From assembly GCA_964016885.1 (NCBI GenBank), contig OZ024743.1:303490001-303554000 (forward strand): DNA of 64,000 nucleotides, in the 5' to 3' direction. Numbering within the stretch: position 1 is the first letter of the stretch; each line of letters opens with the position of its first letter. The notes beneath the pieces are model-generated. The model was not told the DNA's origin. It did not search any database and worked only from the letters and a program-made list of their open reading frames with translations. A program made the position numbers and the translations under genes. Origin of the DNA: Eledone cirrhosa (taxonomy: Eukaryota). Positions 2,731 through 48,707 of this stretch are shown here, piece by piece.

Positions 2731-3550
2731 CGAGGTGTGTCAGAAAAGTTCCTGGATGATGTCACAAAAGATTTATTTCAAACCCAAACTTCCAACTAAG
2801 AGTTTCTGCCACGCTTGCATACACTCCGCAGTTCCGTCGTCAAGGCCATTTTGATGTCGTCCACGTCTTCCGAACGGGTACACTCCGGGTCGTACTCGAA
2901 GATCTATGACTCATCACCGGTGATGACTTTCCCTAGCAAGTCTGGTTCGGTTTCAAGACGCTCGAGGATGTCCTGGCACATTTGCATACGTCGACCCTTC
3001 TGGTCATCGTTCAGCAGTTTCGAGACCATCTTCGCGCAGACTTTCCGCATGTCCAAATCTTCAGTGAGAATTTTCCAGACGCTGTCCAGATTCATGGCCA
3101 GCTCATTTGCCATCAGTTGAACAGTAAGCCGACGATCGCTATGCACCATCTACCTGACACGCTCAACGTTGACCTCAGTCCTGGTTGTTGAGGGCCTTCC
3201 GCTCCTGCGGTCATCTTCCACGTCCTCGCGTCCTTCTTTAAACCTCTTGCACCACTCAAAAACACGTGAGCGTGATATCGTCTCATCTCCATACACTTTC
3301 TGCAGCGGAGTTTTCCCCAACCGTACCAGAAACCTCAACTTTGTTCGTTGCTCTGTGTTCATTGCTTGACAACCTGAAACAGGACATGTATATAAAATTA
3401 TGAAGAAAAAAGTGTAATCGCTGCAGAGAGCTTGGATTACAGTAACATACTCAAGGGGGATTACTTTGAAGGAGAAAATTCTTAGTGTGAAGTTTGGGTT
3501 TGAAATAAATATTTTGTGACATCAGCCCTGGAACTTTGCTGACACACCTC

Positions 3551-3551
<1 letters not shown>
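2731..3551 (-). mobile_element. Internally deleted mariner-family DNA transposon
   Basis: Imperfect terminal inverted repeats of about 70 bp (cgaggtgtgtcag... / ...ctgacacacctcg) flanked by TA. Minus-strand ORFs 3150-3362 and 2904-3149 give mariner HTH regions (VYGDE..SRSRVFEWCKRFKEGREDVEDD.RSGRP) and the ITGDES motif. Confidence 0.9.
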
Positions 3552-3613
<62 letters not shown>

Positions 3614-3898
3614 CAAATAACGAAACGAAATTAAATTTCGTTTCGCTTCTAACTCACTTTTGTATGACTGACGCTTAAACAATTAAGTTAAAGTGTACAT
3701 CTACATATGTATACGGAAGTATTAGTATGCATATAAATACACACATGTATACATATGTACATGTACTCAGCTTTTCACTAGACACTTTACAGTGAGTGTC
3801 AGCTAGTCTGTATGTAACCACACAGGCGGACCGGGTTTTAGAGTCATACGAGTTTTCAAGGAAACACATTTCCTCTATTCTCCAGAGGGCCAGACAGG

Positions 3899-3943
3899 AA
3901 TATTGGACTAGTTTCGATGTTATTACATCTCATCAGCAATATT
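3899..3943 (-). ncRNA. Type I hammerhead ribozyme (first copy; recurs every 469 bp on the minus strand in blocks 1 and 3)
   Basis: Minus strand reads AAUAUUG CUGAUGA GAUGU-AAUA-ACAUC GAAA CUAG UC CAAUAUU: 7-bp stem I, full catalytic core, 5-bp stem II, minimal palindromic stem III, GUC cleavage triplet. Confidence 0.92.
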
Positions 3944-6900
3944 TACCCATCTTCCGGCTTCTCTGGAGAATTGTAAAAGCACATATCGTTATATGCTTTT
4001 TCTATGAAAATTAGTAGTGGGTAGACCAATTTGCATAGAACGTGAGTCATTGTACGCACCGGTTCAGCGGAAACGATAAAAACAAATAACGAAACGAAAT
4101 TAAATTTCGTTTCGCTTCTAACTCACTTTTGTATGACTGACGCTTAAACAATTAAGTTAAAGTGTACATCTACATATGTATACGGAAGTATTAGTATGCA
4201 TATAAATACACACATGTATACATATGTACATGTACTCAGCTTTTCACTAGACACTTTACAGTGAGTGTCAGCTAGTCTGTATGTAACCACACAGGCGGAC
4301 CGGGTTTTAGAGTCATACGAGTTTTCAAGGAAACACATTTCCTCTATTCTCCAGAGGGCCAGACAGGAATATTGGACTAGTTTCGATGTTATTACATCTC
4401 ATCAGCAATATTTACCCATCTTCCGGCTTCTCTGGAGAATTGTAAAAGCACATATCGTTATATGCTTTTTCTATGAAAATAAGTAGTGGGTAGACCAATT
4501 TGCATAGAACGTGAGTCATTGTACGCACCGGTTCAGCGGAAACGATAAAAACAAATAACGAAACGAAATTAAATTTCGTTTCGCTTCTAACTCACTTTTG
4601 TATGACTGACGCTTAAACAATTAAGTTAAAGTGTACATCTACATATGTATACGGAAGTATTAGTATGCATATAAATACACACATGTATACATATGTACAT
4701 GTACTCAGCTTTTCACTAGACACTTTACAGTGAGTGTCAGCTAGTCTGTATGTAACCACACAGGCGGACCGGGTTTTAGAGTCATACGAGTTTTCAAGGA
4801 AACACATTTCCTCTATTCTCCAGAGGGCCAGCCAGGAATATTGGACTAGTTTCGATGTTATTACATCTCATCAGCAATATTTACCCATCTTCCGGCTTCT
4901 CTGGAGAATTGTAAAAGCACATATCGTTATATGCTTTTTCTATGAAAATTAGTAGTGGGTAGACCAATTTGCATAGAACGTGAGTCATTGTACGCACCGG
5001 TTCAGCGGAAACGATAAAAACAAATAACGAAACGAAATTAAATTTCGTTTCGCTTCTAACTCACTTTTGTATGACTGACGCTTAAACAATTAAGTTAAAG
5101 TGTACATCTACATATGTATACGGAAGTATTAGTATGCATATAAATACACACATGTATACATATGTACATGTACTCAGCTTTTCACTAGACACTTTACAGT
5201 GAGTGTCAGCTAGTCTGTATGTAACCACACAGGCGGACCGGGTTTTAGAGTCATACGAGTTTTCAAGGAAACACATTTCCTCTATTCTCCAGAGGGCCAG
5301 ACAGGAATATTGGACTAGTTTCGATGTTATTACATCTCATCAGCAATATTTACCCATCTTCCGGCTTCTCTGGAGAATTGTAAAAGCACATATCGTTATA
5401 TGCTTTTTCTATGAAAATTAGTAGTGGGTAGACCAATTTGCATAGAACGTGAGTCATTGTACGCACCGGTTCAGCGGAAACGATAAAAACAAATAACGAA
5501 ACGAAATTAAATTTCGTTTCGCTTCTAACTCACTTTTGTATGACTGACGCTTAAACAATTAAGTTAAAGTGTACATCTACATATGTATACGGAAGTATTA
5601 GTATGCATATAAATACACACATGTATACATATGTACATGTACTCAGCTTTTCACTAGACACTTTACAGTGAGTGTCAGCTAGTCTGTATGTAACCACACA
5701 GGCGGACCGGGTTTTAGAGTCATACGAGTTTTCAAGGAAACACATTTCCTCTATTCTCCAGAGGGCCAGACAGGAATATTGGACTAGTTTCGATGTTATT
5801 ACATCTCATCAGCAATATTTACCCATCTTCCGGCTTCTCTGGAGAATTGTAAAAGCACATATCGTTATATGCTTTTTCTATGAAAATTAGTAGTGGCTAG
5901 ACCAATTTGCATAGAACGTGAGTCATTGTACGCACCGGTTCAGCGGAAACGATAAAAACAAATAACGAAACGAAATTAAATTTCGTTTCGCTTCTAACTC
6001 ACTTTTGTATGACTGACGCTTAAACAATTAAGTTAAAGTGTACATCTACATATGTATACGGAAGTATTAGTATGCATATAAATACACACATGTATACATA
6101 TGTACATGTACTCAGCTTTTCACTAGACACTTTACAGTGAGTGTCAGCTAGTCTGTATGTAACCACACAGGCGGACCGGGTTTTAGAGTCATACGAGTTT
6201 TCAAGGAAACACATTTCCTCTATTCTCCAGAGGGCCAGACAGGAATATTGGACTAGTTTCGATGTTATTACATCTCATCAGCAATATTTACCCATCTTCC
6301 GGCTTCTCTGGAGAATTGTAAAAGCACATATCGTTATATGCTTTTTCTATGAAAATTAGTAGTGGGTAGACCAATTTGCATAGAACGTGAGTCATTGTAC
6401 GCACCGGTTCAGCGGAAACGATAAAAACAAATAACGAAACGAAATTAAATTTCGTTTCGCTTCTAACTCACTTTTGTATGACTGACGCTTAAACAATTAA
6501 GTTAAAGTGTACATCTACATATGTATACGGAAGTATTAGTATGCATATAAATACACACATGTATACATATGTACATGTACTCAGCTTTTCACTAGACACT
6601 TTACAGTGAGTGTCAGCTAGTCTGTATGTAACCACACAGGCGGACCGGGTTTTAGAGTCATACGAGTTTTCAAGGAAACACATTTCCTCTATTCTCCAGA
6701 GGGCCAGACAGGAATATTGGACTAGTTTCGATGTTATTACATCTCATCAGCAATATTTACCCATCTTCCGGCTTCTCTGGAGAATTGTAAAAGCAGATAT
6801 CGTTATATGCTTTTTCTATGAAAATTAGTAGTGGGTAGACCAATTTGCATAGAACGTGAGTCATTGTACGCACCGGTTCAGCGGAAACGATAAAAACAAA

Positions 6901-7459
6901 TAACGAAACGAAATTAAATTTCGTTTCGCTTCTAACTCACTTTTGTATGACTGACGCTTAAACAATTAAGTTAAAGTGTACATCTACATATGTATACGGA
7001 AGTATTAGTATGCATATAAATACACACATGTATACATATGTACATGTACTCAGCTTTTCACTAGACACTTTACAGTGAGTGTCAGCTAGTCTGTATGTAA
7101 CCACACAGGCGGACCGGGTTTTAGAGTCATACGAGTTTTCAAGGAAACACATTTCCTCTATTCTCCAGAGGGCCAGACAGGAATATTGGACTAGTTTCGA
7201 TGTTATTACATCTCATCAGCAATATTTACCCATCTTCCGGCTTCTCTGGAGAATTGTAAAAGCACATATCGTTATATGCTTTTTCTATGAAAACGAAATT
7301 TAATTTCGTTTCGTTATTTGTTTTTATCGTTTCCGCTGAACCGGTGCGTACAATGACTCACGTTCTATGCAAATTGGTCTACCCACTACTAATTTTCATA
7401 GAAAAAGCATATAACGATATGTGCTTTTACAATTCTCCAGAGAAGCCGGAAGATGGGTA

Positions 7460-7504
7460 AATATTGCTGATGAGATGTAATAACATCGAAACTAGTCCAA
7501 TATT
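7460..7504 (+). ncRNA. Type I hammerhead ribozyme (first plus-strand copy; recurs every 469 bp in blocks 2 and 4)
   Basis: aatattg ctgatga gatgt aata acatc gaaa ctag tc caatatt read directly on the + strand. Confidence 0.92.
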
Positions 7505-10500
7505 CCTGTCTGGCCCTCTGGAGAATAGAGGAAATGTGTTTCCTTGAAAACTCGTATGACTCTAAAACCCGGTCCGCCTGTGTGGTTACATACAGACTAG
7601 CTGACACTCACTGTAAAGTGTCTAGTGAAAAGCTGAGTACATGTACATATGTATACATGTGTGTATTTATATGCATACTAATACTTCCGTATACATATGT
7701 AGATGTACACTTTAACTTAATTGTTTAAGCGTCAGTCATACAAAAGTGAGTTAGAAGCGAAACGAAATTTAATTTCGTTTCGTTATTTGTTTTTATCGTT
7801 TCCGCTGAACCGGTGCGTACAATGACTCACGTTCTATGCAAATTGGTCTACCCACTACTAATTTTCATAGAAAAAGCATATAGCGATATGTGCTTTTACA
7901 ATTCTCCAGAGAAGCCGGAAGATGGGTAAATATTGCTGATGAGATGTAATAACATCGAAACTAGTCCAATATTCCTGTCTGGCCCTCTGGAGAATAGAGG
8001 AAATGTGTTTCCTTGAAAACTCGTATGACTCTAAAACCCGGTCCGCCTGTGTGGTTACATACAGACTAGCTGACACTCACTGTAAAGTGTCTAGTGAAAA
8101 GCTGAGTACATGTACATATGTATACATGTGTGTATTTATATGCATACTAATACTTCCGTATACATATGTAGATGTACACTTTAACTTAATTGTTTAAGCG
8201 TCAGTCATACAAAAGTGAGTTAGAAGCGAAACGAAATTTAATTTCGTTTCGTTATTTGTTTTTATCGTTTCCGCTGAACCGGTGCGTACAATGACTCACG
8301 TTCTATGCAAATTGGTCTACCCACTACTAATTTTCATAGAAAAAGCATATAACGATATGTGCTTTTACAATTCTCCAGAGAAGCCGGAAGATGGGTAAAT
8401 ATTGCTGATGAGATGTAATAACATCGAAACTAGTCCAATATTCCTGTCTGGCCCTCTGGAGAATAGAGGAAATGTGTTTCCTTGAAAACTCGTATGACTC
8501 TAAAACCCGGTCCGCCTGTGTGGTTACATACAGACTAGCTGACACTCACTGTAAAGTGTCTAGTGAAAAGCTGAGTACATGTACATATGTATACATGTGT
8601 GTATTTATATGCATACTAATACTTCCGTATACATATGTAGATGTACACTTTAACTTAATTGTTTAAGCGTCAGTCATACAAAAGTGAGTTAGAAGCGAAA
8701 CGAAATTTAATTTCGTTTCGTTATTTGTTTTTATCGTTTCCGCTGAACCGGTGCGTACAATGACTCACGTTCTATGCAAATTGGTCTACCCACTACTAAT
8801 TTTCATAGAAAAAGCATATAACGATATGTGCTTTTACAATTCTCCAGAGAAGCCGGAAGATGGGTAAATATTGCTGATGAGATGTAATAACATCGAAACT
8901 AGTCCAATATTCCTGTCTGGCCCTCTGGAGAATAGAGGAAATGTGTTTCCTTGAAAACTCGTATGACTCTAAAACCCGGTCCGCCTGTGTGGTTACATAC
9001 AGACTAGCTGACACTCACTGTAAAGTGTCTAGTGAAAAGCTGAGTACATGTACATATGTATACATGTGTGTATTTATATGCATACTAATACTTCCGTATA
9101 CATATGTAGATGTACACTTTAACTTAATTGTTTAAGCGTCAGTCATACAAAAGTGAGTTAGAAGCGAAACGAAATTTAATTTCGTTTCGTTATTTGTTTT
9201 TATCGTTTCCGCTGAACCGGTGCGTACAATGACTCACGTTCTATGCAAATTGGTCTACCCACTACTAATTTTCATAGAAAAAGCATATAACGATATGTGC
9301 TTTTACAATTCTCCAGAGAAGCCGGAAGATGGGTAAATATTGCTGATGAGATGTAATAACATCGAAACTAGTCCAATATTCCTGTCTGGCCCTCTGGAGA
9401 ATAGAGGAAATGTGTTTCCTTGAAAACTCGTATGACTCTAAAACCCGGTCCGCCTGTGTGGTTACATACAGACTAGCTGACACTCACTGTAAAGTGTCTA
9501 GTGAAAAGCTGAGTACATGTACATATGTATACATGTGTGTATTTATATGCATACTAATACTTCCGTATACATATGTAGATGTACACTTTAACTTAATTGT
9601 TTAAGCGTCAGTCATACAAAAGTGAGTTAGAAGCGAAACGAAATTTAATTTCGTTTCGTTATTTGTTTTTATCGTTTCCGCTGAACCGGTGCGTACAATG
9701 ACTCACGTTCTATGCAAATTGGTCTACCCACTACTAATTTTCATAGAAAAAGCATATAACGATATGTGCTTTTACAATTCTCCAGAGAAGCCGGAAGATG
9801 GGTAAATATTGCTGATGAGATGTAATAACATCGAAACTAGTCCAATATTCCTGTCTGGCCCTCTGGAGAATAGAGGAAATGTGTTTCCTTGAAAACTCGT
9901 ATGACTCTAAAACCCGGTCCGCCTGTGTGGTTACATACAGACTAGCTGACACTCACTGTAAAGTGTCTAGTGAAAAGCTGAGTACATGTACATATGTATA
10001 CATGTGTGTATTTATATGCATACTAATACTTCCGTATACATATGTAGATGTACACTTTAACTTAATTGTTTAAGCGTCAGTCATACAAAAGTGAGTTAGA
10101 AGCGAAACGAAATTTAATTTCGTTTCGTTATTTGTTTTTATCGTTTCCGCTGAACCGGTGCGTACAATGACTCACGTTCTATGCAAATTGGTCTACCCAC
10201 TACTAATTTTCATAGAAAAAGCATATAACGATATGTGCTTTTACAATTCTCCAGAGAAGCCGGAAGATGGGTAAATATTGCTGATGAGATGTAATAACAT
10301 CGAAACTAGTCCAATATTCCTGTCTGGCCCTCTGGAGAATAGAGGAAATGTGTTTCCTTGAAAACTCGTATGACTCTAAAACCCGGTCCGCCTGTGTGGT
10401 TACATACAGACTAGCTGACACTCACTGTAAAGTGTCTAGTGAAAAGCTGAGTACATGTACATATGTATACATGTGTGTATTTATATGCATACTAATACTT

Positions 10501-11978
10501 CCGTATACATATGTAGATGTACACTTTAACTTAATTGTTTAAGCGTCAGTCATACAAAAGTGAGTTAGAAGCGAAACGAAATTTAATTTCGTTTCGTTAT
10601 TTGTTTTTATCGTTTCCGCTGAACCGGTGCGTACAATGACTCACGTTCTATGCAAATTGGTCTACCCACTACTAATTTTCATAGAAAAAGCATATAACGA
10701 TATGTGCTTTTACAATTCTCCAGAGAAGCCGGAAGATGGGTAAATATTGCTGATGAGATGTAATAACATCGAAACTAGTCCAATATTCCTGTCTGGCCCT
10801 CTGGAGAATAGAGGAAATGTGTTTCCTTGAAAACTCGTATGACTCTAAAACCCGGTCCGCCTGTGTGGTTACATACAGACTAGCTGACACTCACTGTAAA
10901 GTGTCTAGTGAAAAGCTGAGTACATGTACATATGTATACATGTGTGTATTTATATGCATACTAATACTTCCGTATACATATGTAGATGTACACTTTAACT
11001 TAATTGTTTAAGCGTCAGTCATACAAAAGTGAGTTAGAAGCGAAACGAAATTTAATTTCGTTTCGTTATTTGTTTTTATCGTTTCCGCTGAACCGGTGCG
11101 TACAATGACTCACGTTCTATGCAAATTGGTCTACCCACTACTAATTTTCATAGAAAAAGCATATAACGATATGTGCTTTTACAATTCTCCAGAGAAGCCG
11201 GAAGATGGGTAAATATTGCTGATGAGATGTAATAACATCGAAACTAGTCCAATATTCCTGGCTGGCCCTCTGGAGAATAGAGGAAATGTGTTTCCTTGAA
11301 AACTCGTATGACTCTAAAACCCGGTCCGCCTGTGTGGTTACATACAGACTAGCTGACACTCACTGTAAAGTGTCTAGTGAAAAGCTGAGTACATGTACAT
11401 ATGTATACATGTGTGTATTTATATGCATACTAATACTTCCGTATACATATGTAGATGTACACTTTAACTTAATTGTTTAAGCGTCAGTCATACAAAAGTG
11501 AGTTAGAAGCGAAACGAAATTTAATTTCGTTTCGTTATTTGTTTTTATCGTTTCCGCTGAACCGGTGCGTACAATGACTCACGTTCTATGCAAATTGGTC
11601 TACCCACTACTTATTTTCATAGAAAAAGCATATAACGATATGTGCTTTTACAATTCTCCAGAGAAGCTGGAAGATGGGTAAATATTGCTGATGAGATGTA
11701 ATAACATCGAAACCAGTCCAATATTCCTGTCTGGCCCTCTGGAGAATAGAGGAAATGTGTTTCCTTGAAAACTCGTATGACTCTAAAACCCGGTCCGCCT
11801 GTGTGGTTACATACAGACTAGCTGACACTCACTGTAAAGTGTCTAGTGAAAAGCTGAGTACATGTACATATGTATACATGTGTGTATTTATATGCATACT
11901 AATACTTCCGTATACATATGTAGATGTACACTTTAACTTAATTGTTTAAGCGTCAGTCATACAAAAGTGAGTTAGAAG

Positions 11979-12003
11979 CGAAACGAAATTAAATTTCGTT
12001 TCG
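11979..12003. repeat. 25-bp palindrome at the centre of a roughly 6.4-kb inverted repeat
   Basis: cgaaacgaaat-taa-atttcgtttcg is present once per unit. Here both flanks are mirror images (gttagaag... / ...cttctaac). Confidence 0.95.
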
Positions 12004-15000
12004 CTTCTAACTCACTTTTGTATGACTGACGCTTAAACAATTAAGTTAAAGTGTACATCTACATATGTATACGGAAGTATTAGTATGCATATAAATACAC
12101 ACATGTATACATATGTACATGTACTCAGCTTTTCACTAGACACTTTACAGTGAGTGTCAGCTAGTCTGTATGTAACCACACAGGCGGACCGGGTTTTAGA
12201 GTCATACGAGTTTTCAAGGAAACACATTTCCTCTATTCTCCAGAGGGCCAGACAGGAATATTGGACTAGTTTCGATGTTATTACATCTCATCAGCAATAT
12301 TTACCCATCTTCCGGCTTCTCTGGAGAATTGTAAAAGCACATATCGTTATATGCTTTTTCTATGAAAATATGTAGTGGGTAGACCAATTTGCATAGAACG
12401 TGAGTCATTGTACGCACCGGTTCAGCGGAAACGATAAAAACAAATAACGAAACGAAATTAAATTTCGTTTCGCTTCTAACTCACTTTTGTATGACTGACG
12501 CTTAAACAATTAAGTTAAAGTGTACATCTACATATGTATACGGAAGTATTAGTATGCATATAAATACACACATGTATACATATGTACATGTACTCAGCTT
12601 TTCACTAGACACTTTACAGTGAGTGTCAGCTAGTCTGTATGTAACCACACAGGCGGACCGGGTTTTAGAGTCATACGAGTTTTCAAGGAAACACATTTCC
12701 TCTATTCTCCAGAGGGCCAGCCAGGAATATTGGACTAGTTTCGATGTTATTACATCTCATCAGCAATATTTACCCATCTTCCGGCTTCTCTGGAGAATTG
12801 TAAAAGCACATATCGTTATATGCTTTTTCTATGAAAATTAGTAGTGGGTAGACCAATTTGCATAGAACGTGAGTCATTGTACGCACCGGTTCAGCGGAAA
12901 CGATAAAAACAAATAACGAAACGAAATTAAATTTCGTTTCGCTTCTAACTCACTTTTGTATGACTGACGCTTAAACAATTAAGTTAAAGTGTACATCTAC
13001 ATATGTATACGGAAGTATTAGTATGCATATAAATACACACATGTATACATATGTACATGTACTCAGCTTTTCACTAGACACTTTACAGTGAGTGTCAGCT
13101 AGTCTGTATGTAACCACACAGGCGGACCGGGTTTTAGAGTCATACGAGTTTTCAAGGAAACACATTTCCTCTATTCTCCAGAGGGCCAGACAGGAATATT
13201 GGACTAGTTTCGATGTTATTACATCTCATCAGCAATATTTACCCATCTTCCGGCTTCTCTGGAGAATTGTAAAAGCACATATCGTTATATGCTTTTTCTA
13301 TGAAAATTAGTAGTGGGTAGACCAATTTGCATAGAACGTGAGTCATTGTACGCACCGGTTCAGCGGAAACGATAAAAACAAATAACGAAACGAAATTAAA
13401 TTTCGTTTCGCTTCTAACTCACTTTTGTATGACTGACGCTTAAACAATTAAGTTAAAGTGTACATCTACATATGTATACGGAAGTATTAGTATGCATATA
13501 AATACACACATGTATACATATGTACATGTACTCAGCTTTTCACTAGACACTTTACAGTGAGTGTCAGCTAGTCTGTATGTAACCACACAGGCGGACCGGG
13601 TTTTAGAGTCATACGAGTTTTCAAGGAAACACATTTCCTCTATTCTCCAGAGGGCCAGACAGGAATATTGGACTAGTTTCGATGTTATTACATCTCATCA
13701 GCAATATTTACCCATCTTCCGGCTTCTCTGGAGAATTGTAAAAGCACATATCGTTATATGCTTTTTCTATGAAAATTAGTAGTGGGTAGACCAATTTGCA
13801 TAGAACGTGAGTCATTGTACGCACCGGTTCAGCGGAAACGATAAAAACAAATAACGAAACGAAATTAAATTTCGTTTCGCTTCTAACTCACTTTTGTATG
13901 ACTGACGCTTAAACAATTAAGTTAAAGTGTACATCTACATATGTATACGGAAGTATTAGTATGCATATAAATACACACATGTATACATATGTACATGTAC
14001 TCAGCTTTTCACTAGACACTTTACAGTGAGTGTCAGCTAGTCTGTATGTAACCACACAGGCGGACCGGGTTTTAGAGTCATACGAGTTTTCAAGGAAACA
14101 CATTTCCTCTATTCTCCAGAGGGCCAGACAGGAATATTGGACTAGTTTCGATGTTATTACATCTCATCAGCAATATTTACCCATCTTCCGGCTTCTCTGG
14201 AGAATTGTAAAAGCACATATCGTTATATGCTTTTTCTATGAAAATTAGTAGTGGGTAGACCAATTTGCATAGAACGTGAGTCATTGTACGCACCGGTTCA
14301 GCGGAAACGATAAAAACAAATAACGAAACGAAATTAAATTTCGTTTCGCTTCTAACTCACTTTTGTATGACTGACGCTTAAACAATTAAGTTAAAGTGTA
14401 CATCTACATATGTATACGGAAGTATTAGTATGCATATAAATACACACATGTATACATATGTACATGTACTCAGCTTTTCACTAGACACTTTACAGTGAGT
14501 GTCAGCTAGTCTGTATGTAACCACACAGGCGGACCGGGTTTTAGAGTCATACGAGTTTTCAAGGAAACACATTTCCTCTATTCTCCAGAGGGCCAGACAG
14601 GAATATTGGACTAGTTTCGATGTTATTACATCTCATCAGCAATATTTACCCATCTTCCGGCTTCTCTGGAGAATTGTAAAAGCACATATCGTTATATGCT
14701 TTTTCTATGAAAATTAGTAGTGGGTAGACCAATTTGCATAGAACGTGAGTCATTGTACGCACCGGTTCAGCGGAAACGATAAAAACAAATAACGAAACGA
14801 AATTAAATTTCGTTTCGCTTCTAACTCACTTTTGTATGACTGACGCTTAAACAATTAAGTTAAAGTGTACATCTACATATGTATACGGAAGTATTAGTAT
14901 GCATATAAATACACACATGTATACATATGTACATGTACTCAGCTTTTCACTAGACACTTTACAGTGAGTGTCAGCTAGTCTGTATGTAACCACACAGGCG

Positions 15001-17956
15001 GACCGGGTTTTAGAGTCATACGAGTTTTCAAGGAAACACATTTCCTCTATTCTCCAGAGGGCCAGACAGGAATATTGGACTAGTTTCGATGTTATTACAT
15101 CTCATCAGCAATATTTACCCATCTTCCGGCTTCTCTGGAGAATTGTAAAAGCACATATCGTTATATGCTTTTTCTATGAAAACGAAATTTAATTTCGTTT
15201 CGTTATTTGTTTTTATCGTTTCCGCTGAACCGGTGCGTACAATGACTCACGTTCTATGCAAATTGGTCTACCCACTACTAATTTTCATAGAAAAAGCATA
15301 TAACGATATGTGCTTTTACAATTCTCCAGAGAAGCCGGAAGATGGGTAAATATTGCTGATGAGATGTAATAACATCGAAACTAGTCCAATATTCCTGTCT
15401 GGCCCTCTGGAGAATAGAGGAAATGTGTTTCCTTGAAAACTCGTATGACTCTAAAACCCGGTCCGCCTGTGTGGTTACATACAGACTAGCTGACACTCAC
15501 TGTAAAGTGTCTAGTGAAAAGCTGAGTACATGTACATATGTATACATGTGTGTATTTATATGCATACTAATACTTCCGTATACATATGTAGATGTACACT
15601 TTAACTTAATTGTTTAAGCGTCAGTCATACAAAAGTGAGTTAGAAGCGAAACGAAATTTAATTTCGTTTCGTTATTTGTTTTTATCGTTTCCGCTGAACC
15701 GGTGCGTACAATGACTCACGTTCTATGCAAATTGGTCTACCCACTACTAATTTTCATAGAAAAAGCATATAACGATATGTGCTTTTACAATTCTCCAGAG
15801 AAGCCGGAAGATGGGTAAATATTGCTGATGAGATGTAATAACATCGAAACTAGTCCAATATTCCTGTCTGGCCCTCTGGAGAATAGAGGAAATGTGTTTC
15901 CTTGAAAACTCGTATGACTCTAAAACCCGGTCCGCCTGTGTGGTTACATACAGACTAGCTGACACTCACTGTAAAGTGTCTAGTGAAAAGCTGAGTACAT
16001 GTACATATGTATACATGTGTGTATTTATATGCATACTAATACTTCCGTATACATATGTAGATGTACACTTTAACTTAATTGTTTAAGCGTCAGTCATACA
16101 AAAGTGAGTTAGAAGCGAAACGAAATTTAATTTCGTTTCGTTATTTGTTTTTATCGTTTCCGCTGAACCGGTGCGTACAATGACTCACGTTCTATGCAAA
16201 TTGGTCTACCCACTACTAATTTTCATAGAAAAAGCATATAACGATATGTGCTTTTACAATTCTCCAGAGAAGCCGGAAGATGGGTAAATATTGCTGATGA
16301 GATGTAATAACATCGAAACTAGTCCAATATTCCTGTCTGGCCCTCTGGAGAATAGAGGAAATGTGTTTCCTTGAAAACTCGTATGACTCTAAAACCCGGT
16401 CCGCCTGTGTGGTTACATACAGACTAGCTGACACTCACTGTAAAGTGTCTAGTGAAAAGCTGAGTACATGTACATATGTATACATGTGTGTATTTATATG
16501 CATACTAATACTTCCGTATACATATGTAGATGTACACTTTAACTTAATTGTTTAAGCGTCAGTCATACAAAAGTGAGTTAGAAGCGAAACGAAATTTAAT
16601 TTCGTTTCGTTATTTGTTTTTATCGTTTCCGCTGAACCGGTGCGTACAATGACTCACGTTCTATGCAAATTGGTCTAGCCACTACTAATTTTCATAGAAA
16701 AAGCATATAACGATATGTGCTTTTACAATTCTCCAGAGAAGCCGGAAGATGGGTAAATATTGCTGATGAGATGTAATAACATCGAAACTAGTCCAATATT
16801 CCTGTCTGGCCCTCTGGAGAATAGAGGAAATGTGTTTCCTTGAAAACTCGTATGACTCTAAAACCCGGTCCGCCTGTGTGGTTACATACAGACTAGCTGA
16901 CACTCACTGTAAAGTGTCTAGTGAAAAGCTGAGTACATGTACATATGTATACATGTGTGTATTTATATGCATACTAATACTTCCGTATACATATGTAGAT
17001 GTACACTTTAACTTAATTGTTTAAGCGTCAGTCATACAAAAGTGAGTTAGAAGCGAAACGAAATTTAATTTCGTTTCGTTATTTGTTTTTATCGTTTCCG
17101 CTGAACCGGTGCGTACAATGACTCACGTTCTATGCAAATTGGTCTACCCACTACTAATTTTCATAGAAAAAGCATATAACGATATGTGCTTTTACAATTC
17201 TCCAGAGAAGCCGGAAGATGGGTAAATATTGCTGATGAGATGTAATAACATCGAAACTAGTCCAATATTCCTGGCTGGCCCTCTGGAGAATAGAGGAAAT
17301 GTGTTTCCTTGAAAACTCGTATGACTCTAAAACCCGGTCCGCCTGTGTGGTTACATACAGACTAGCTGACACTCACTGTAAAGTGTCTAGTGAAAAGCTG
17401 AGTACATGTACATATGTATACATGTGTGTATTTATATGCATACTAATACTTCCGTATACATATGTAGATGTACACTTTAACTTAATTGTTTAAGCGTCAG
17501 TCATACAAAAGTGAGTTAGAAGCGAAACGAAATTTAATTTCATTTCGTTATTTGTTTTTATCGCTTCCGCTGAACCGGTGCGTACAATGACTCACGTTCT
17601 ATGCAAATTGGTCTACCCACTACTAATTTTCATAGAAAAAGCATATAACGATATGTGCTTTTACAATTCTCCAGAGAAGCCGGAAGATGGGTAAATATTG
17701 CTGATGAGATGTAATAACATCGAAACTAGTCCAATATTCCTGTCTGGCCCTCTGGAGAATAGAGGAAATGTGTTTCCTTGAAAACTCGTATGACTCTAAA
17801 ACCCGGTCCGCCTGTGTGGTTACATACAGACTAGCTGACACTCACTGTAAAGTGTCTAGTGAAAAGCTGAGTACATGTACATATGTATACATGTGTGTAT
17901 TTATATGCATACTAATACTTCCGTATACATATGTAGATGTACACTTTAACTTAATT

Positions 17957-18051
<95 letters not shown>

Positions 18052-18299: not shown

Positions 18300-19880
18300 T
18301 CTCATTTTTGAGAGATTGCTGATATCACGAATAATACACCTCCTTGAATCTGCTGAACTCCAGCCATCATGAGTTTTGTGGTGGCAGGAACTGCCTGTGG
18401 TAGTTTCTGCATTACATCGATGACATCCTAAATTATTTGAGAGATGGCACCAACGAGGATGTAATTTACTTTGATTTCAGCAAGGCATTTGACAGAGTGG
18501 ATCATCGCCAGATTCCAGCAGGTTGTGCTCAAAGGAAAATGATTAAGATCAGCCAAGATCAGTAGTAGAGTCCCACAAGGCAGTTTGGTTCCATATAATT
18601 TCATTATTTATAACAATGACGGTGGATTGGCAGTGGAAAAGACGGTGGAAAGGGCGGTGGATTGGCAGTATCGGTAGAGGGTCGGACGCCATGCTTTGAC
18701 GTATAGAGTTACGGCCCTTGCCATTCTGAGTTCAAATCCCGCCGAGGTTAACTTTGCCTTTCATCCTTACGGAGTCGATAAAATAAAGTACCAGTAATGC
18801 ACTGGGTAATTGCTGGCCTTGTGCCAAATGTAGAAACAATTATTTATAACAATGACATTATCGACGTCGTCAAGCACAGCAAGATAAATATTTTCGCAAA
18901 TAGTTGCAATCTCCAGACGGATCTCAATGGAGTGGGAGCCGGATATGCCTTCAATTGGATGCGCATGCTGTTATCCTATGGGCATAGGACAAATAATAAT
19001 ATTATGTTAAATTAGGATACATCTGATTTAATCTATTTTTGAAAAGATGATGCTTTGAAATTACCAAATTATATTCCCTCAGATGAAACCCTCGAATCAT
19101 CAAACAACCCCAGGTACCTTGGAACACTGTAACAACATCAGAGACCTTGTAGATTACAATATTAGCTGAAGTACTAATATAAACACCAATGTTGACTCGG
19201 ACTGTAGGATATCTGTCTGGATTTTCAGAGCCTTCCGTACTAGAGAGATTCGCAGCATTTTCCCACTCTACTCTACCTGCTCCCGGCCTCACCTGGAATA
19301 AAATTGTTCATTATGGTCTCCATACACAAAATAAAGTATTATGAATATTGAAGCATTTCAGTGGTCAACGACAAGGAAGATAGACGTTATACCCCGCCCT
19401 AACTAGTGGGGTTATTTATATTCCCAGACTCTACTCACTGCAATGCTGCCATTAACACTACATCGTCTGTATATTGTGCAAAACATTCTCTCAATATTGC
19501 CAAACTCATGTTGTCATCTACTATAATATCCATCCATGACTTGATCCCCGTGCTACCGATCCAATAGAAAAATAAGATAAGCATCTCATAGCAAGTATAC
19601 CACACAACTACTTCACCTCAGCTCGCCCCACTATCTTTAATATGATAGCAAAATATATCAAGAGAGAAACAGATTCCAAAATATTAAAAAAAGTATCCTG
19701 GACGAATGTGTGCAGGAAATCCCAGATAGAAGCATTACACACGGATATATCTCTGAAAACAACAACAAATATTTACTAGATTGGACGATGGTGAACAAAA
19801 CATGAAGTAGTCGTGAACTCATGATCAGAAAAACTTCGCTGGGTGGTGCTATTAATTCAGACATGGCCAGGGCGAACAGT
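18300..19880 (+). mobile_element. Highly decayed CR1/L2-type LINE reverse transcriptase remnant
   Basis: DVIYFDFSKAFDRVDH at about 18458-18505 and a VPQGS-like motif at about 18570. Many stops and frameshifts; boundaries approximate. Confidence 0.65.
18621..18838 (+). mobile_element. tRNA-derived SINE with 18-bp TSD, inserted in the LINE relic
   Basis: A-box-like tggcagtatcgg and B-box-like gagttcaaatcc. TSD attatttataacaatgac at 18603-18620 and 18839-18856. Homologous copies at 43.5 kb and 62 kb. Confidence 0.85.
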
Positions 19881-22048: not shown

Positions 22049-22612
22049 AGCAACGATGGTTGCCAAACACTGTACAGCTAAGAATCCTGGCTGTTTGTTT
22101 ACAAACAAACCGAGCATAACAATAAATGTTCTGTAAACCCATACGTACATATATAAATATGTGTGTGCATGTATGTATGTATATATATACTACTGTACGT
22201 CTGTATACATATATGTACGTATACATACTTATAAGTATCAGCCGTACTAAGAGTGAGAAATGAAATTTCATTTTTTCCATTTATCGTTTTCGGTACACCC
22301 GGCCGACTAACTCACTCAATATAAAAAATTAGGCTGCTCAACCGTTAATATGCATATGACAGGAAGGTATACGGTGCTGATGACAGCTAATAAGCTAGAA
22401 ACTAGTTCATCGTTCATTTGTCAGTATTGAACAAAGGGGCAACGATGGTTGCCGAATACTGTACGGCTAATAATCCGGGCTGTTTGTTTAAAACAAACCG
22501 AGCATTATAATAAATGTTCGGTAATTCCATACGTGCATATATATATGTGTGCATGTATGTATGTATATACATACTACTGTACGTCTGTATACATATATGT
22601 ATGTACGTATTT
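22049..22612 (+). repeat. Diverged tandem repeat of about 390 bp (about 1.5 units) related to the 469-bp unit
   Basis: gcaacgatggttgcc...ctgtatacatatatgta occurs at about 22050 and 22439. The segment 22235-22310 resembles the array's gtgag...gaaacgaaattt...tttatcgtttccg...ccgg region. Confidence 0.7.
22371..22413 (+). ncRNA. Type I hammerhead ribozyme (diverged relative of the array ribozyme)
   Basis: acggtg ctgatga cagct aata agcta gaaa ctag tt catcgt: same AAUA loop II and CUAG stem III, different but paired stems I and II, GUU triplet. Confidence 0.8.
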
Positions 22613-30684: not shown

Positions 30685-30720
<36 letters not shown>

Positions 30721-30723
<3 letters not shown>

Positions 30724-33700
30724 AGAGTATTGGAGTTTGCTTGAAGCATTGGGGAATAATAAGTAAATATCTTTGAGTCGTTTGGAAGCCTCGACAATGC
30801 AAATGGGTAGATCTCCGGGTAACAAGATCCGGTGGTGGAGAGAGAGATGGAAGAGGGTGTACGTTGAATGCGTGGTGAGTATAAGATGTGTAAGATGTGT
30901 AGAAGAAAGAAGGGAAGAGTATAAAGGATAAAATTAAAATAACAACGCAAGAGCGAGTTACCTTGGGAGAGATTTAATAGTCCCTATATATTTCGGATTC
31001 ACATCCATCAACTGGGGTTTTTTTCCGGGGTGGGGGAAAGGTTGTCTGTCGGACAGGTGCGAAACGCGTCCTCCGCTGTTTGTTATTTTGAACATCTGAG
31101 GTATTCGGCAGAGCGCGCGTGCGCGTGAAATGGGGTCGGTCGGGCAGAGGTCAGCGGCCGAATGAGGGAGTGGGCTGGCGCTAGCTGTCAGTACATTCTC
31201 TGCATGTTTGTTAAATGTTACTGTGTGCGTGTGCGTGTGTTGTTGTCTCGCTTGAGTGTGTGTGTGTGTGCGTGTGTTGTTGCCTTGTTCCTCTGTATTG
31301 GCAGTGTAGTATGTTCGTATGGTGGAATGCTACTGTGTGTGTGTGCGTGTGCGTAGTTGTCTCATTTGGGTGTGTGTGTGTGTGCGTGTGTTGTGTGTTG
31401 CTGCATCGTTTGTTAACTTAAACCAGCCATCTCATTTCGCTTCTCTCGGATCGGTTGTTTATTTGCGGTTGCAGGCGTTTGATAAAAAGCGCTTCCTTGA
31501 TACGTAACGTGCCGACGTTTCTTTCAGTCGCTAGAATTGTGACAATGGGCCTTCCGTCTTTGTTTCCCCATGTTTCTATGTGTTTCCAGAAAGACGAGGC
31601 CCTGGATTTAGTGTGTTCCTTGATACGGATGTGCAAAGGTCGGATTGTGCTACCTATCTAGTATTGGTTGCACCTGTCACATTCTATCTTATACACGACG
31701 TATGTTCGTAGGCAACAGTTCGCATGGCGTATCGGGCAGTCTCTGAGGGAGCATGCGTCAGTAGATTTCCCGAGTTTCCTGGAAAGGAATCTTCGCAGGG
31801 AGGGGCCCGAGTGGGCCAGGTTGTTGTCGAGGACCTCCCTCCGTATAGCCTTGCGGATAGCCTTGTTGGTATTCTCGCCCAGGTGTGGCATTTTAAGGAA
31901 GCACTTACCTTGGGTGCCTCTCTGTCTCGTGTGTCCGGTGTCTCCTATTCTGCCTGTGATCGAGGTAGGGTACCCGTTCGTCTCCAGCACCTCGAGGAAT
32001 CGCTTCGTATGAGTGACACCACTCGCGGGATCGCTGCATCTGTTTTTGATTCGCGCGATATCGTTCGTGATGTATCCTCTTTTGGCACTGTTAGGGAGGG
32101 CGCACTTGTAGTGAACGAACAGGTCCCTGCAGGCTGCCTTTCGGTAGAAGTTGCAGTGGATCCTTCCCTGTTCCGTGATGTTGATTCGGAAGTCGAGGAG
32201 GGCAAGTGACTCGTCTTCGTTGGGGTGTTCAACACTGAAGTCAATGTTCTCGTCCGTGTTGTTGAACGTCTCATAGGGAAAAGAATTCTGCGTCATTAGC
32301 AGAGAGGCCTACAACACCTTGACGATGACAACCTCTACTCCAAGGTCACGGGAATCACTCCCGAGCAGATAGAAAAGCACATCAACGCCGCCTGGACCAA
32401 CATCTGCGACCGGCGGAACCTCCCGAAGAAGCTGAGATACAACCTCCTCACGAGGAACAGCAGACTACCCGCCTTCTACCACCTCGTGAAAACACACAAA
32501 CAGGGACCCGACCTGAAGATCAGGCCCATCGTATCGAAAGTGGGGGACCACTCTACGAAATGTCATGGCTCCTAGCCAGAATACTCAAACCCATCTTAGA
32601 CACCTTGCCGGGACACGTTAACAGTTCCGAGGAGGTGTTGAAGCGCTTGCATCAAATGGATCCTGACACCAGAAGGAATAACAGATATGCCTTCAGCCTT
32701 GATGTAGTCGCTCTCTACACCTCGGTCCCGGCACTCCCGGCCGTCAATATACTGATGGAACGCGTCCATCCACCGACCTACACTGCTTCGGGCTCACCAC
32801 CACTGACATCCACCAACTCCTATCCATCGTCGTCGACAACATCTACTTCGGATTCCTTGACCAAACATACCAACAAACCTCGGGATTGCCCACGGGATCA
32901 AGCCTATCAGGTGTGCTAGCGATCTCTTACATGGACAACCTCGAACGCAAGGCTCTCAACGCCTGCCATCCCCAACGCCGTAGCCTTTTTCTCAAGGTAC
33001 GTGGACGATATCCTCATCGGCACATCTTCCCAAGACACGGTGAACAGAATCTATGAGACGTTCAACTACACGGACGAGAACATTGACTTCAGTGTTGAAT
33101 ACCCCAAAGAAAACCTGTCACTTGCCCTCCTCGACTTCCGAATCAACATCACGGAACATGGAAGGATCCACTGCAACTTCTACCGAAAGGCAGCCTACAG
33201 GGACCTGTTCGTTCACTACAAGTCCGCCCTCACTAACAGTGCCAAAGAGGATACATCACGAACGAGATCGCGCGAATCAAAAACAGATGCAGCGATCCCG
33301 CGAGTGGTGTCACTCATGCAAGCGATTCCTCGAGGTGCTGGAAACGAACGGGTACCCTACCTCGATCACAGACAGAATAGGAGATATCAGACACAGAGAG
33401 GCACCCAAGGTAAGTGCTTCCTTAAAATGCCACACCTGGGCGAGAATACCACAAACGCTATCCGCAAGGCTATACGGAGGGATGGCTTCGACATCCACCT
33501 GGCCCACTCGGGCCCCTCCCTGCGAAGATGCCTCTCCAGGAAACCCGGGAAATCTACTGACGCATGCTCCCTCAGAGACTGCCCGATACTCCATGCGAAC
33601 TGTTGCCTACGCACATACGTGGTGTATAAGATAGAATGTGACAGGTGCAACCAATACTACATAGGTAGCACAATCCGACATTTGCACATCCGGATAAAGG

Positions 33701-34550
33701 AACACACTAAAACCAGGGCCTCATCTTTCTGGAAACACATAGAAAAATGCGGAAACAATGACGATAGGCCCATTGTCACAATTCTAGCGACTGAAAGAAA
33801 CGTCGGCACGTTACGTATCAAGGAAGTGCTTTTTATCAAACCCCTGCAACCACAAATAAACAACCGATCAGAGAGAAGCGAAATGAGATGGCTGGTTTAA
33901 GTTAACAAACGATGCAGCAACACACAACACACGCACACACACACACACAAACGATACAACTACACACACACACACGCACACACATACAGAAGCATTCCAC
34001 CATACGAACATACTACACTGCCAATACAGAGGAACAAGGCAACAACACACGCACACACACACTCAAACGAGACAACAACACACGCACACACACACACAGT
34101 AACATTTAACCAACAGGCAGAGAATGGACTGACAGCTAGCGCCACTCCACTCCCTCATTCATCCGCTGACCTCTGCCCGCCGACGCCGTTTCACGCGCAC
34201 GCGGGCTCTGCCGAATACCTCAGATATTCAAAACAACAAACAGCGGAGGACGCGTTTCGCACCTGTCCGGCAGACAACCTTTCCCCCACCCCGGAAAAAA
34301 AACCCAGTTGATGGATGTGAATCAGAAATATATAGGGACTATTAAATCTCTCCCAAGGTTGTGTTGTTATTTTAATTTTATGCTTTATACCCTTCCCTTC
34401 ATTCTTCTACATATCTTACACATCTTATACACACCACTCATCTCAACGTACATCCACTTACATCTCTCTCTCCACCACCGGATCTTGTTACCCGGAGATT
34501 TACCCATTTGCGTTGTCGAGGCTTCCAAACGACTTAAATATATTTACTTA
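30721..34550 (+). mobile_element. Penelope-like element, 5'-truncated, with a 1.5-kb inverted copy of its 3' half
   Basis: RT motifs LKIRPIVS, FSLDVVALYTSVP and YVDDI; GIY-YIG VVYKIECDRCNQYYIGST..L..RIKEH. About 30760-32276 is the reverse complement of about 33051-34550. (TA)n on both sides. Confidence 0.9.
32277..33900 (+). pseudogene. Frameshifted PLE RT plus GIY-YIG endonuclease ORF
   Basis: ORF pieces 32560-32919 and 33001-33900 carry consecutive RT and EN motifs in different frames. Confidence 0.85.
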
Positions 34551-34659
34551 TATATATATATATATATGTGTGTGCGTGTAAAAGTTATTTTTAAATTGTT
34601 GGGATACAACAAGCAAATCTTTTTAGAACTAGGAATATATTATGGTTCGCTCCATCTTT

Positions 34660-46436: not shown

Positions 46437-48704
46437 TTACTTTCTCGTGTGCGATTCGAGATGCCTCAAAGGCACTTTTCCCTCATATACAGTCTTTCTC
46501 CATTTATTACGATCAGCAGCAATATTTTCCCATGTACCAGCAGAGATGTTAGCGTCTTTCAGAGAGGCTTTCAAGGAATTCTTATACCTCTTTTTTGGTT
46601 TATGTGGCGGTCGTTTTCCTTTAACCAACTCTCCATAGAAGAGTTGTTTTGGTATTCTAGAATCCTTCATCATGGCAAGCTGACCACTCCAACGGAGTCG
46701 TTGCTGAAGCACAAGAGCTTCTATACTGTCAATCATAGAGCTTTCCAAAATCTCGACATCACTGATGTGGTCCCTCCAGTGAACGCCATGGATCCGTCTG
46801 AGACACATCTGATGGAAACGCTCCAATTGCTTAAGGTGGCGTCGATATGTGACCCACATCTCGCAGGCATAAAGAAGAAAAGAGAGTACACATGCCCTGT
46901 ACACCTTTACCTTTGTCCTCCTGCATATGTCTCGCCGACCCCAGAGTCGCCTTTCTAGCTTTCCGAAAGCATCACTTGCTTTCCTAATCCTAAATGAGAT
47001 TTCACCGTCAAGGTTGCCATATCGATTGACAATGCTTCCCAGGTAGACAAACTGATCAACTACTCCAAGTCGTCTGCCATACACATAGATGTTTGGTTCA
47101 ATGTACTGCTTACCAGGGGCAGGTTGGTACATGACGACGGTTTTCTTGAGACTGACAGTCAAACCCAGGGCAGTGCAAGCGTCAGAAAATGCATTCAAAA
47201 TGTGCTGCATATCACTCTCTGTGTGCGCTACAAGATCGCAATCATCTGCATACAAGAGGTCTCTTATGACTGATGTAATTACTTTTGTCTTCGCAGCAAA
47301 GCGCCTGATGTTAAATATGCTGCCTGAGGTTCGATATCGGATGTAAACACCATGCTCGCAATTCCTGAATGCAATACAGAAAACCATTGCAAAGTATATG
47401 GCAAACAGGGTCGGTGCCGGAATATCCCCCTGTTTCACTCCATTTTTTACTGAGATAGGCTCCGACATGTTACCTCCGACATTAACCCAAGCCTTCATGT
47501 CGTCATGGAAAGACCTAACTAAAGCAAGGAACTTATCAGGGCAACCAAGTTTCTGGAGAACCTTCCATAATGCATCTCTGTTGACAGTATCGAAAGCCTT
47601 TGTCAGATCGACAAAAACCTGATACAGATCCAAGCCCTGTTCAATGCACTTCTCCTGCAGCTGTCTAGCTGAGAAGATCATATCAGTAGTGCCGCGTCCA
47701 GCACGAAAACCAGATTGACTTTCAGGAAGGACACAATCTGCAATGTGTGTCAGCAGACGGTCCAGAAGCACCCTACATAAAACTTTCCCTACGACAGAAA
47801 GCAATGATATACCTCTGTAGTTCCCACAATCATTCCTGTTACCCTTTCCCTTGTACAAGACCACCATTACTGCATCTCTCCAGACCTCAGGCACGGATTC
47901 ATTAGCCCATATCCCTCCAAACAGAGAGTGAAGATGTTGCAGGAGTTTCTCACCACCATATTGTAGGAGCTCATCATGTATGCCATCCATACCTGGAGAT
48001 CTTCCACTGTTCAGCTTCGAAATAGCCACTGCAACCTCCACAAGCGTCGGAGGTTCTGCGAGAGCTACTTTCACAGGACTTTCCGGAATGAGACTGAGGA
48101 AATCTTCACCGACGACAGACGGCTGATTCAAAAGATCATCAAAGTGCTCTCGCCACCTTCGTAGAATTCCCTGTGAGTCACGAAGAAATTCTTTGCCATC
48201 CTTGCTGCGAATCGGTGTCACCAGAGAAGAAGACGGTCCATAAACCTCAAGCAAGAGACTGTACAACAGCTTTGTGTTATTGCAATCAGACGCAGTTTGT
48301 ATCTCACCAGCCTTCTCACTCCACCACTGATCCTTCATCTGAGAAAGACTCCGCCTAACACGTGATTTTACATCCCTGATCTCCTCATGCAACGTATTCC
48401 TCTCCTGTGGTTTTGCCGTCAAGTAGTGTGACAGAGCACGCCTCTTATCAGCCAACAAGTCTTCTATATGTACATTATTCTTATTAAACCAGTCCTGATG
48501 TTTTCTCTGTACCAATCCCAGAACACGTCTGCCTACATCATAAACCGACTTTTTAAGGGTCGGCCAATCCTCACCAAGATCTGCAGCCTGCATCTCTTCT
48601 TCCAATGTCCTCTTCACATTTGTATCCTTAAGACGAGCAGCATTCAATCTTTTGGGCAGGGTAACACCAGGAGCCCGGATTTTACGTTTGGTGATTAGAT
48701 TCAC
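46437..48704 (-). pseudogene. RTE reverse transcriptase part (755 aa, out of frame with the APE part)
   Basis: ORF track; complete set of RT motifs. Confidence 0.88.
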
Positions 48705-48707
48705 TTT

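Follow-up and report, generated by a model that had tools for sequence, protein, structure and literature searches.

The question raised by this locus of Eledone cirrhosa is how a tandem array of one short repeat unit came to change orientation three times. The window, that is, the whole 64-kb stretch of contig OZ024743.1 that was analysed, is without any N and holds a four-armed array of a 469-bp unit at 3607-17961, bounded on both sides by (TA)n tracts; the four-armed structure is known here from the assembled sequence alone. An earlier note on this DNA had ascribed all three switches to one 25-bp palindrome and had proposed rolling-hairpin replication. The parts of the array, with positions in the window, are as follows.

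3552..3609, unstranded: left (TA)n target microsatellite, adjoining the end of a mariner-like remnant
3607..7293, minus strand: arm A, 7.9 units, antisense to the putative ribozyme; its outer end, which bears the tail, is unit position 38
3607..3675, minus strand: one-sided tail of 69 nt, unit 439-469 plus 1-38, with the hairpin inside
7291..7293, unstranded: head-to-head junction J, copy 1, unit 104 joined to unit 2-4 with an AAA overlap
7291..11990, plus strand: arm B, 10.0 units, sense; the outer 6.8 units mirror arm C
8227..8251, plus strand: the 25-nt quasi-palindrome in its usual form, which every unit has once; -9.9 kcal/mol as DNA
8387..8457, plus strand: a copy of the putative hammerhead motif, minimal type I, with CUGAUGA core and GAAAC-UA-GUC; 31 copies in the array
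8800..15182, unstranded: long palindrome, arms of 3,191 bp, 3 mismatches, all at most 380 bp from the centre
11979..12003, unstranded: tail-to-tail junction H, hairpin centre at 11991
11991..15182, minus strand: arm C, 6.8 units, antisense; repeats arm A directly at offset 7,889, beginning at that arm's second hairpin and running inward
15180..15182, unstranded: head-to-head junction J, copy 2, unit 104 joined to unit 2-4 with an AAA overlap
15180..17961, plus strand: arm D, 5.9 units, sense; its outer end is unit position 438
17960..18048, unstranded: right (TA)n target microsatellite

Much of the earlier description was borne out. The switch at 11991 is centred on a 25-nt quasi-palindrome (12-bp arms, 1-nt centre), and the palindrome arms, given before as about 3.2 kb, are of that length; the AAA-overlap junctions at 7293 and 15182, 3 nt of overlap in each, are identical across 60 bp; and the array does start 14 bp ahead of the hairpin, at unit position 38. 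The orientation of the arms needs a correction, in that the arms formerly called forward, A and C, are those antisense to the ribozyme motif. The tail is on the left outer end and the right outer end is without one; any target-site duplication would be masked by the (TA)n on both flanks.

The unit is tandem, with 37% GC. The hammerhead core, stems I and II and a minimal stem III can be recognised in 31 of 31 copies, of which 30 are unchanged and one has a loop III change at 11714. The motif scores 31.8 bits against Rfam HH9 (E 4.8e-6), under the gathering score of 52, and at gathering score Rfam gave no match in the 64-kb window. The ribozyme is predicted to cut after unit position 208, and a computed fold predicts a strongly self-paired unit circle (z -10.7). 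No ORF of 120 aa lies within the array, barring one that runs out through the TA tract, and no RNA run is among the sequencing runs listed for the unit, where the best share of words is 0.75. A type I hammerhead motif in every unit, together with a short, low-GC, non-coding sequence without LTR that occurs as dispersed multimers, supports the earlier view that the unit is retrozyme-like. Metazoan non-LTR retrozymes are described with units of 150-450 bp (Cervera and de la Pena 2020, PMC7229834; Li, Clavereau and Pollet 2026, 10.64898/2026.07.22.740005), and the features shared with those accounts are the non-coding, low-GC tandem unit, the type I hammerhead in each unit, the dispersed dimers to multimers, the strongly self-paired circle (predicted here) and a palindromic loop III; at 469 bp, however, the present unit is slightly over the range. 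Inverted two-armed insertions with two fixed ends do not seem to be mentioned in these accounts, although their supplements may show inverted copies.

The family to which the array belongs numbers at least 1,908 insertions, counted by exact tail ends. A positional sample took in 80 loci (79 distinct), selected for a tail end at unit 38. An inverted arm is present in 69 of the 79 distinct loci, nine being single-armed and one not read to its end, and of the 67 two-armed copies that are complete, 63 have their other end, opposite the tail end at 38, at unit 430-438. Both fixed ends flank the hairpin; the position of the junction between the arms is scattered. A second long orientation switch was found in none of the 80 sampled loci. 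The assembly of this genome contains single arms that are 26 to more than 32 units long, and long arrays of the family carry internal duplications at the DNA level, with 37 variants recurring within one arm.

As far as sequence can tell, the inverted 5'-truncated second arm, the one-sided tail and the two fixed termini match the footprint of a Penelope-like insertion. An inverted 5'-truncated copy and a one-sided tail are described for endonuclease-bearing Penelope-like insertions (PMC8557442), and in vitro two RT start sites bound the tail while both DNA strands are cut and extended (PMC11167929). The likeness includes the head-to-head inverted truncated copy, the one-sided tail and microsatellite targets (PMC8557442, PMC3846280, PMC11167929), and also a minimal hammerhead, palindromes at some inverted junctions and two RT start sites round a stem-loop. 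Since the inverted head-to-head form is described as the Penelope-like norm (PMC8557442, PMC3846280), the inversion as such is not new. The present insertions differ in that each arm consists of repeats of a single short unit with no RT/GIY-YIG ORF, and in a tail of about 69-74 nt where 30-40 is given for Penelope-like elements. ORFs with RT and GIY-YIG exist in the genome; the unit was found as a pLTR at 0 of 45 GIY-YIG loci (the best 30 plus 15 longer stretches), and these 45 yielded just one separate retrozyme insertion plus weak matches to a related hammerhead repeat. With no RT/GIY-YIG ORF in the unit and no pLTR shared among the 45 loci, the array appears not to be an autonomous Penelope-like element.

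The two copies of J are in the same orientation. Furthermore, 4090-10072 recurs as a direct 5,983-bp duplication at 11979-17961 (offset 7,889) with few mismatches, and unit-specific variants are in register between the two copies. The exact J 31-mer occurs twice in the 3.0 Gb genome, both times in this array, and H is unique genome-wide but for one tail-to-tail hairpin junction 10 bp from a 200-N assembly gap. All three orientation switches are present as first described, but judged by these comparisons they amount to two events, the two J copies being duplicates of one.

Variants 220G and 102T lie in units 6 and 7, counted from J, in arm A and arm C alike, and they are mirrored in arm B, 730 and 379 bp from the centre. 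Left-arm units 1-7 are present in A, outer B and C with their variants in register and with the junction at the 25-nt hairpin; variant types common to several arms are 3 of 10 here, compared with 8 of 299 variants in 48 other loci. At 11991 the bottom strand carries the sense base, which is what reading through C and copying B from it should give. Variant 93G is in arms A and D and absent from B and C, and 220G is also in D; two switches alone do not give this, which would need one conversion between the outer arms plus an ancestral shared variant. Three sites distinguish arm A from arm C, and several distinguish B from D. In the register of a 100-nt loop, arm A is not the mirror of B, nor C that of D. 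Systematic sequencing error was rejected as the source of 220G, 102T and 93G, none of which is present in 37 other near-identical loci. Short contigs from 4 runs (other or uncertain samples) cover the unit, with TA loose ends at unit position 38 in 2 studies; they list no strand-change joint, although such contigs cannot show absence and are silent on H and J.

No other local DNA hairpin of the unit is as strong as the 25-nt one, and head-to-head junctions centred on the latter number 27 genome-wide, where about 0.2 would be expected (random position pairs, 1,908 insertions). Both ends fall inside the hairpin at 0 of 69 sampled junctions. Arm ends lie in the hairpin in 11 of 136 cases (9.2 expected, P 0.32), with a slight enrichment in its far arm (9 of 136, 5.1 expected, P 0.065). 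Loop distances at ordinary junctions are weakly below random (mean 101 vs 114 nt, permutation P 0.048), and 10 of 69 junctions have a loop distance of 25 nt or less, 8.8 being expected. Of 100 junction-nearest variants, one is mirrored between arms, a count whose power is limited in that most variants may postdate insertion. With loop lengths near random and so few mirrored variants, fold-back was rejected as the general origin of ordinary junctions. Near-identical J-type junctions occur at 2 other loci (0.43 expected, P 0.07), and J-type junctions in all are about 0.2% of insertions; a preferred 100-nt loop was also rejected, the J-type junction being found at 3 loci and at 2 in the control window. 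These data support the hairpin as a real but minor inversion hot spot, and do not bear out the earlier proposal that it is a defined stop and self-priming site. The breakpoints mapped at other loci are scattered, an outcome that the earlier note had itself named as refuting, and the rolling-hairpin reading is largely refuted by this.

We consider it probable that the array began as an ordinary two-armed retrozyme insertion, mobilised by a Penelope-type enzyme, and that part of this insertion was afterwards duplicated on the spot. Two DNA template switches would have brought the duplication about, and one of these would have been a fold-back at the 25-nt hairpin. In the first step, an RT/GIY-YIG enzyme of this type, suggested by the family pattern, would prime reverse transcription from both ends of a cut (TA)n, with RNA start sites fixed at unit 38 and 433-438 on either side of the hairpin. 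The two cDNAs would then be joined at a variable point, here J, to give left arm, J and right arm. In a second step, during later DNA synthesis, the bottom strand may have copied D, J and C, read through the hairpin, snapped back there and copied its own new strand, which would be outer B; return to the parental template at a homologous right-arm unit would lead to a second copying of J and the left arm. Given identical units, this second switch would leave no junction to be seen. The outcome would resemble an inverted triplication, with two J copies in the same orientation and one hairpin-centred junction, and fold-back at the hairpin is most likely how the array centre formed. Inverted triplications are reported to have junctions at short inverted repeats (PMC10766186), and ODIRA and DUP-TRP/INV-DUP (PMC10766186; see also PMC11293582, PMC4352052) share with the array the threefold segment with one copy inverted, the junction at a short inverted repeat, the long palindrome and the masking of the second junction by homologous repeats; the rearrangement here differs in its size of 8 kb, in lying inside one repeat array, and in being a single case known from assembly alone. 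Several points count against the proposal: instability in vivo is to be expected of a perfect 3.2-kb palindrome (PMC10766186), the distribution of 93G and 220G does not follow from the two switches, the sole other tail-to-tail hairpin junction is the one beside the assembly gap, and no autonomous partner emerged among the 45 GIY-YIG loci.

The same gap bears on the possibility, unlikely but to be taken seriously, that the array is an assembly artefact. In that case the locus would in truth hold an insertion with two arms and 6-8 kb long, and the assembler would have passed twice along the left arm and J, misled by a read that folded back at the hairpin or by two haplotypes joined through such a read. 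A read of this kind would account equally for the mirrored variants and for the centre base; H is unique, one comparable junction abuts a contig gap, and all 3 palindrome mismatches are close to the centre. Fold-back reads make up to about 0.6% of ONT genomic reads according to PMC12870357, but they are virtually absent from the HiFi data tested there, which may or may not be the platform of this assembly. Against an artefact, no N occurs anywhere in the window, the two copies of the duplicated block depart from each other at the sites that separate A from C and B from D, and, with single arms of 26 units and more assembled, many reads should span a 6-8 kb locus.

There is little chance that the array arose in one step, by unequal exchange or break repair between the right-arm hairpin and the left-arm hairpin of the sister chromatid, followed by contraction of D and conversion of the palindrome. 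The palindrome is the only sequence that reads alike in both orientations, and such an exchange accounts for the direct duplication, for two copies of J and one H, and for the presence of 220G in the penultimate unit of B as well as of D. However, the exact mirror register of 220G and 102T would then be a coincidence, with odds of about 1 in 8, or the result of a subsequent conversion; a loss of 4 or more units from D is required; and the homology is just 24 of 25 bp.

It is also improbable that a Penelope-type enzyme itself turns at the tail hairpin and copies the integration intermediate back and forth, the hairpin serving as both recognition element and snap-back primer, to give occasional multi-armed palindromic concatemers. 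If it did, such a snap-back step would have left its first genomic trace in the array and in the 27 hairpin-centred junctions.

In parvovirus rolling-hairpin replication, head-to-head and tail-to-tail junctions alternate and are centred on the hairpin; each arm of such a replicon is the full complement of the preceding one, and the copied hairpin junction alternates in orientation. The array shares the hairpin-centred alternation, but differs in its unequal arms, its non-alternating J, the lack of a Rep protein or resolution site, and its absence from the rest of the family. That one strand was rolled back and forth in retrotransposition, with the hairpin as stop and primer and each junction formed anew, is therefore very unlikely indeed. 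All three junctions do touch the hairpin, the 27 hairpin-centred junctions, the two other J-type loci and the slight excess of far-arm ends point the same way, and self-priming has been proposed for Penelope palindromic junctions (PMC3846280). Nevertheless, arms of 5.9, 6.8, 10.0 and 7.9 units cannot each copy the preceding one, and a recopied hairpin loop should be inverted, yet both J copies, themselves one duplicated event, read the same way. Nor are A/B and C/D mirrored in the 100-nt-loop register; J-type junctions barely exceed the control window, and the family lacks both the second long switch (0/80) and mirrored junction-nearest variants (1/100). A literature search returned no paper combining rolling hairpin with retrotransposon and ribozyme. 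Insertion of a second element into the first at the hairpin was dismissed, there being no internal tails or TA tracts and the J copies being identical.

As the rolling-hairpin claim fails, the four-armed array is most likely a one-off. If reads confirm it, insertions of this kind would have a fold-back site of their own, from which palindromes of several kilobases can arise via inverted triplication; if not, the locus marks a sequence where long-read assemblies of this genome fail. The family itself is a large natural data set on the open question of how Penelope-like elements form tandem and inverted insertions, and its pattern of two fixed starts round a strong hairpin with a variable junction matches the two start sites described in vitro (PMC11167929). 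A decayed Penelope-like copy elsewhere in the same window also has its tails out, with an extra tail on one arm.

The array of the 469-bp unit spans 14.4 kb (3607-17961) and is bordered by (TA)n tracts, 58 bp long on the left and 89 bp on the right. With the origin of unit numbering at window position 8228 and the + strand as ribozyme sense, it comprises four arms of alternating orientation:

3607 to 7291-7293, antisense: arm A, 7.9 units, starting at unit position 38
7291-7293 to 11991, sense: arm B, 10.0 units
11991 to 15180-15182, antisense: arm C, 6.8 units
15180-15182 to 17961, sense: arm D, 5.9 units, ending at unit position 438

One identical head-to-head junction, J, links A to B and C to D, joining unit position 104 to 2-4 through an AAA overlap. 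The tail-to-tail B/C boundary, H, is the centre of a 25-nt quasi-palindrome (the hairpin) at 11991 and is surrounded by a palindrome with 3,191-bp arms and 3 mismatches. The three orientation switches and hairpin-centred palindrome described in the earlier note are confirmed; the window contains no N bases. To the left, a mariner-like remnant (3000-3551; weak Mos1 HTH match, below cut-off) runs up to the TA tract, and to the right 18404-18565 holds what we take, from its motif, to be a short RT-like peptide remnant.

The unit encodes no protein and carries a putative minimal type I hammerhead motif, with stem I at 171-177/209-215 and a core of CUGAUGA at 178, a 5-bp stem II, GAAAC-UA-GUC and the palindromic ACTAGT; the match to Rfam HH9 (31.8 bits, E 4.8e-6) falls short of the gathering score. 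Folded as a circle, the ribozyme-defined monomer has a predicted energy of -154.7 kcal/mol, compared with -94.8 for its 60 shuffled versions (z -10.7). No other local DNA hairpin of the unit is predicted to be as strong as the 25-mer. In sequence and predicted fold, the unit fits metazoan non-LTR retrozymes as described in excerpts of PMC7229834.

In the 3.0 Gb of genome searched, 1,908 sites exactly match the tail end together with the TA after it, so the family has at least this many insertions. Segmentation covered 80 of the first 83 places listed among these matches, all of them selected by their 38 end: one repeated another and was left out, one (over 32 units) was not read as far as a junction, nine consist of a single arm, and the other 69, of which 12 were set by hand, carry a second arm in inverse orientation. 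Since the second end lies at 430-438 in 63 of the 67 two-armed loci read to both ends, the usual insertion is two-armed, tails out, with ends at 38 and 433-438; the hairpin sits inside the 69-74 nt (the tail) separating these fixed end sites. The 37 best-scoring loci of the family search have the identical form. Judged by variants, the two arms of an ordinary insertion do not mirror each other (8 of 299 variants are common to both arms at 48 loci), and 37 variants recur within a single arm, showing that long arrays undergo internal DNA-level duplication. The sole mirrored case among 100 junction-nearest variants is at L052, where the units closest to the junction on either side both have the centre base of the hairpin flipped (positions 4254 and 4448), which suggests local fold-back or palindrome correction.

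Among other observations, variants repeat at fixed unit intervals in long arms of 14 to more than 30 units (L056, L095, L133, L144, L168), which shows either that several units at a time were duplicated in tandem after insertion or that the multimeric template was heterogeneous. A subfamily that is older and 85-90% identical, with units of 463-471 bp (L073, L076, L095, L113 and others), has the same two termini and a 14-bp-arm version of the hairpin. One insertion with its flank was found twice, ~18 kb apart (L119, L120; G000:C1:55.97 and 55.99 Mb), suggesting segmental or false duplication.

The proposal that the hairpin is a defined turning point does not hold: none of the 69 sampled junctions has both ends in it, arm ends fall there near expectation (11 of 136, 9.2 expected, P 0.32; far arm, 9 of 136, 5.1 expected, P 0.065), and junctions elsewhere are scattered. 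Nor was a second long switch seen in the first 9,500 bases read at the 80 sampled loci. J-type junctions occur at two other loci, against two for a control window. Exact hairpin-centred head-to-head junctions nevertheless number 27 genome-wide (~1.4% of insertions), far above the 0.2 expected from random position pairs, which makes the hairpin a minor hot spot, of the kind expected if cDNA snaps back there or if two cDNA ends anneal over the 25 nt. Most of 20 such junctions examined (L072-L091) keep the two fixed outer ends; in about half, one arm is the tail alone and the other 0.93 unit, in total about one unit length.

Genome-wide, the exact J sequence is present only twice, both times in this array; the block 4090-10072 repeats at an offset of 7,889; and, counted from J, units 6 and 7 carry variants 220G and 102T in A as well as in C, with mirrored counterparts in B about 11991. 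J therefore arose once and was then duplicated, and the outer part of B is complementary to C. H is unique in the genome for the unit's subfamily; its one counterpart has the flanks of the older subfamily and lies 10 bp from a gap of 200 N. A single nascent bottom strand with two template switches could account for the four arms: it would copy D, J and C, snap back at a hairpin to copy itself, then pair with a homologous unit in the right arm of the parental strand and from there copy J and the left arm once more. At 11991 the polarity of the centre base is the one that snap-back self-copying predicts, and the scheme follows the logic of inverted triplications, whose junctions lie at short inverted repeats (excerpt of PMC10766186). 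The fit is not perfect: to explain 93G, which is confined to A and D, and the presence of 220G in D, one has to assume a conversion and an ancestral variant.

A read folding back at the hairpin would yield the same mirror and centre base, and such reads make up ~0.6% of ONT genomic reads and are virtually absent from HiFi (excerpt of PMC12870357). The duplicated blocks are not identical, however, and far longer arrays are assembled in this genome, so a real structure is favoured and an assembly artefact appears unlikely; caution is due because the second tail-to-tail case adjoins a gap and long perfect palindromes are expected to be unstable. Rolling-hairpin synthesis, in which each arm is copied from its predecessor and junctions form anew, is not borne out, since lengths run 5.9, 6.8, 10.0, 7.9, both J share one direction where a copied J should be inverted, A does not mirror B, and J would form twice independently with a chance of ~0.1-0.2%, from its frequency elsewhere; a literature search combining rolling hairpin, retrotransposon and ribozyme gave no match. 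Most likely the four arms result from a later, one-off duplication at the hairpin. The earlier interpretation is supported in part: the retrozyme-like unit and a role of the hairpin as a minor hot spot stand, a defined stop and rolling-hairpin replication do not.

Penelope-like insertions carry an inverted 5'-truncated copy with the tail at one end (excerpts of PMC8557442 and PMC3846280), and in vitro two RT start sites bound the Penelope tail while both DNA strands are cut and extended (PMC11167929, in part). The element is a retrozyme-like family whose two-armed, tails-out, two-fixed-end insertions show this footprint. A decayed Penelope-like insertion of the same form, with both ends in (TA)n, lies in the window at ~30720-34551; its inverted arms (30759-32276 and 34551-33051) are 92% identical, a GIY-YIG match falls within 32920-33897, and one arm has ~38 extra nt of tail. 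No partner enzyme was identified among 45 GIY-YIG loci compared with the unit. Long open RT + GIY-YIG frames of 938 and 1,096 aa (L202 2809-5622, -; L204 2775-6062, +) mark candidate autonomous Penelope-like elements, without demonstrated tie to the unit.

A second, divergent hammerhead repeat (window 22050-22605, L196, L215) comprises a TA-rich block, AAGAGTGAG, a degenerate hairpin and a hammerhead with ACTAGT loop; this layout matches that of the unit, so it probably represents a related retrozyme-like family. LINE-type remnants lie at 46437-49757 (-; endonuclease and RT, interrupted by a single stop) and 51056-54481 (+; an uninterrupted 1,141-aa frame with RT domain).
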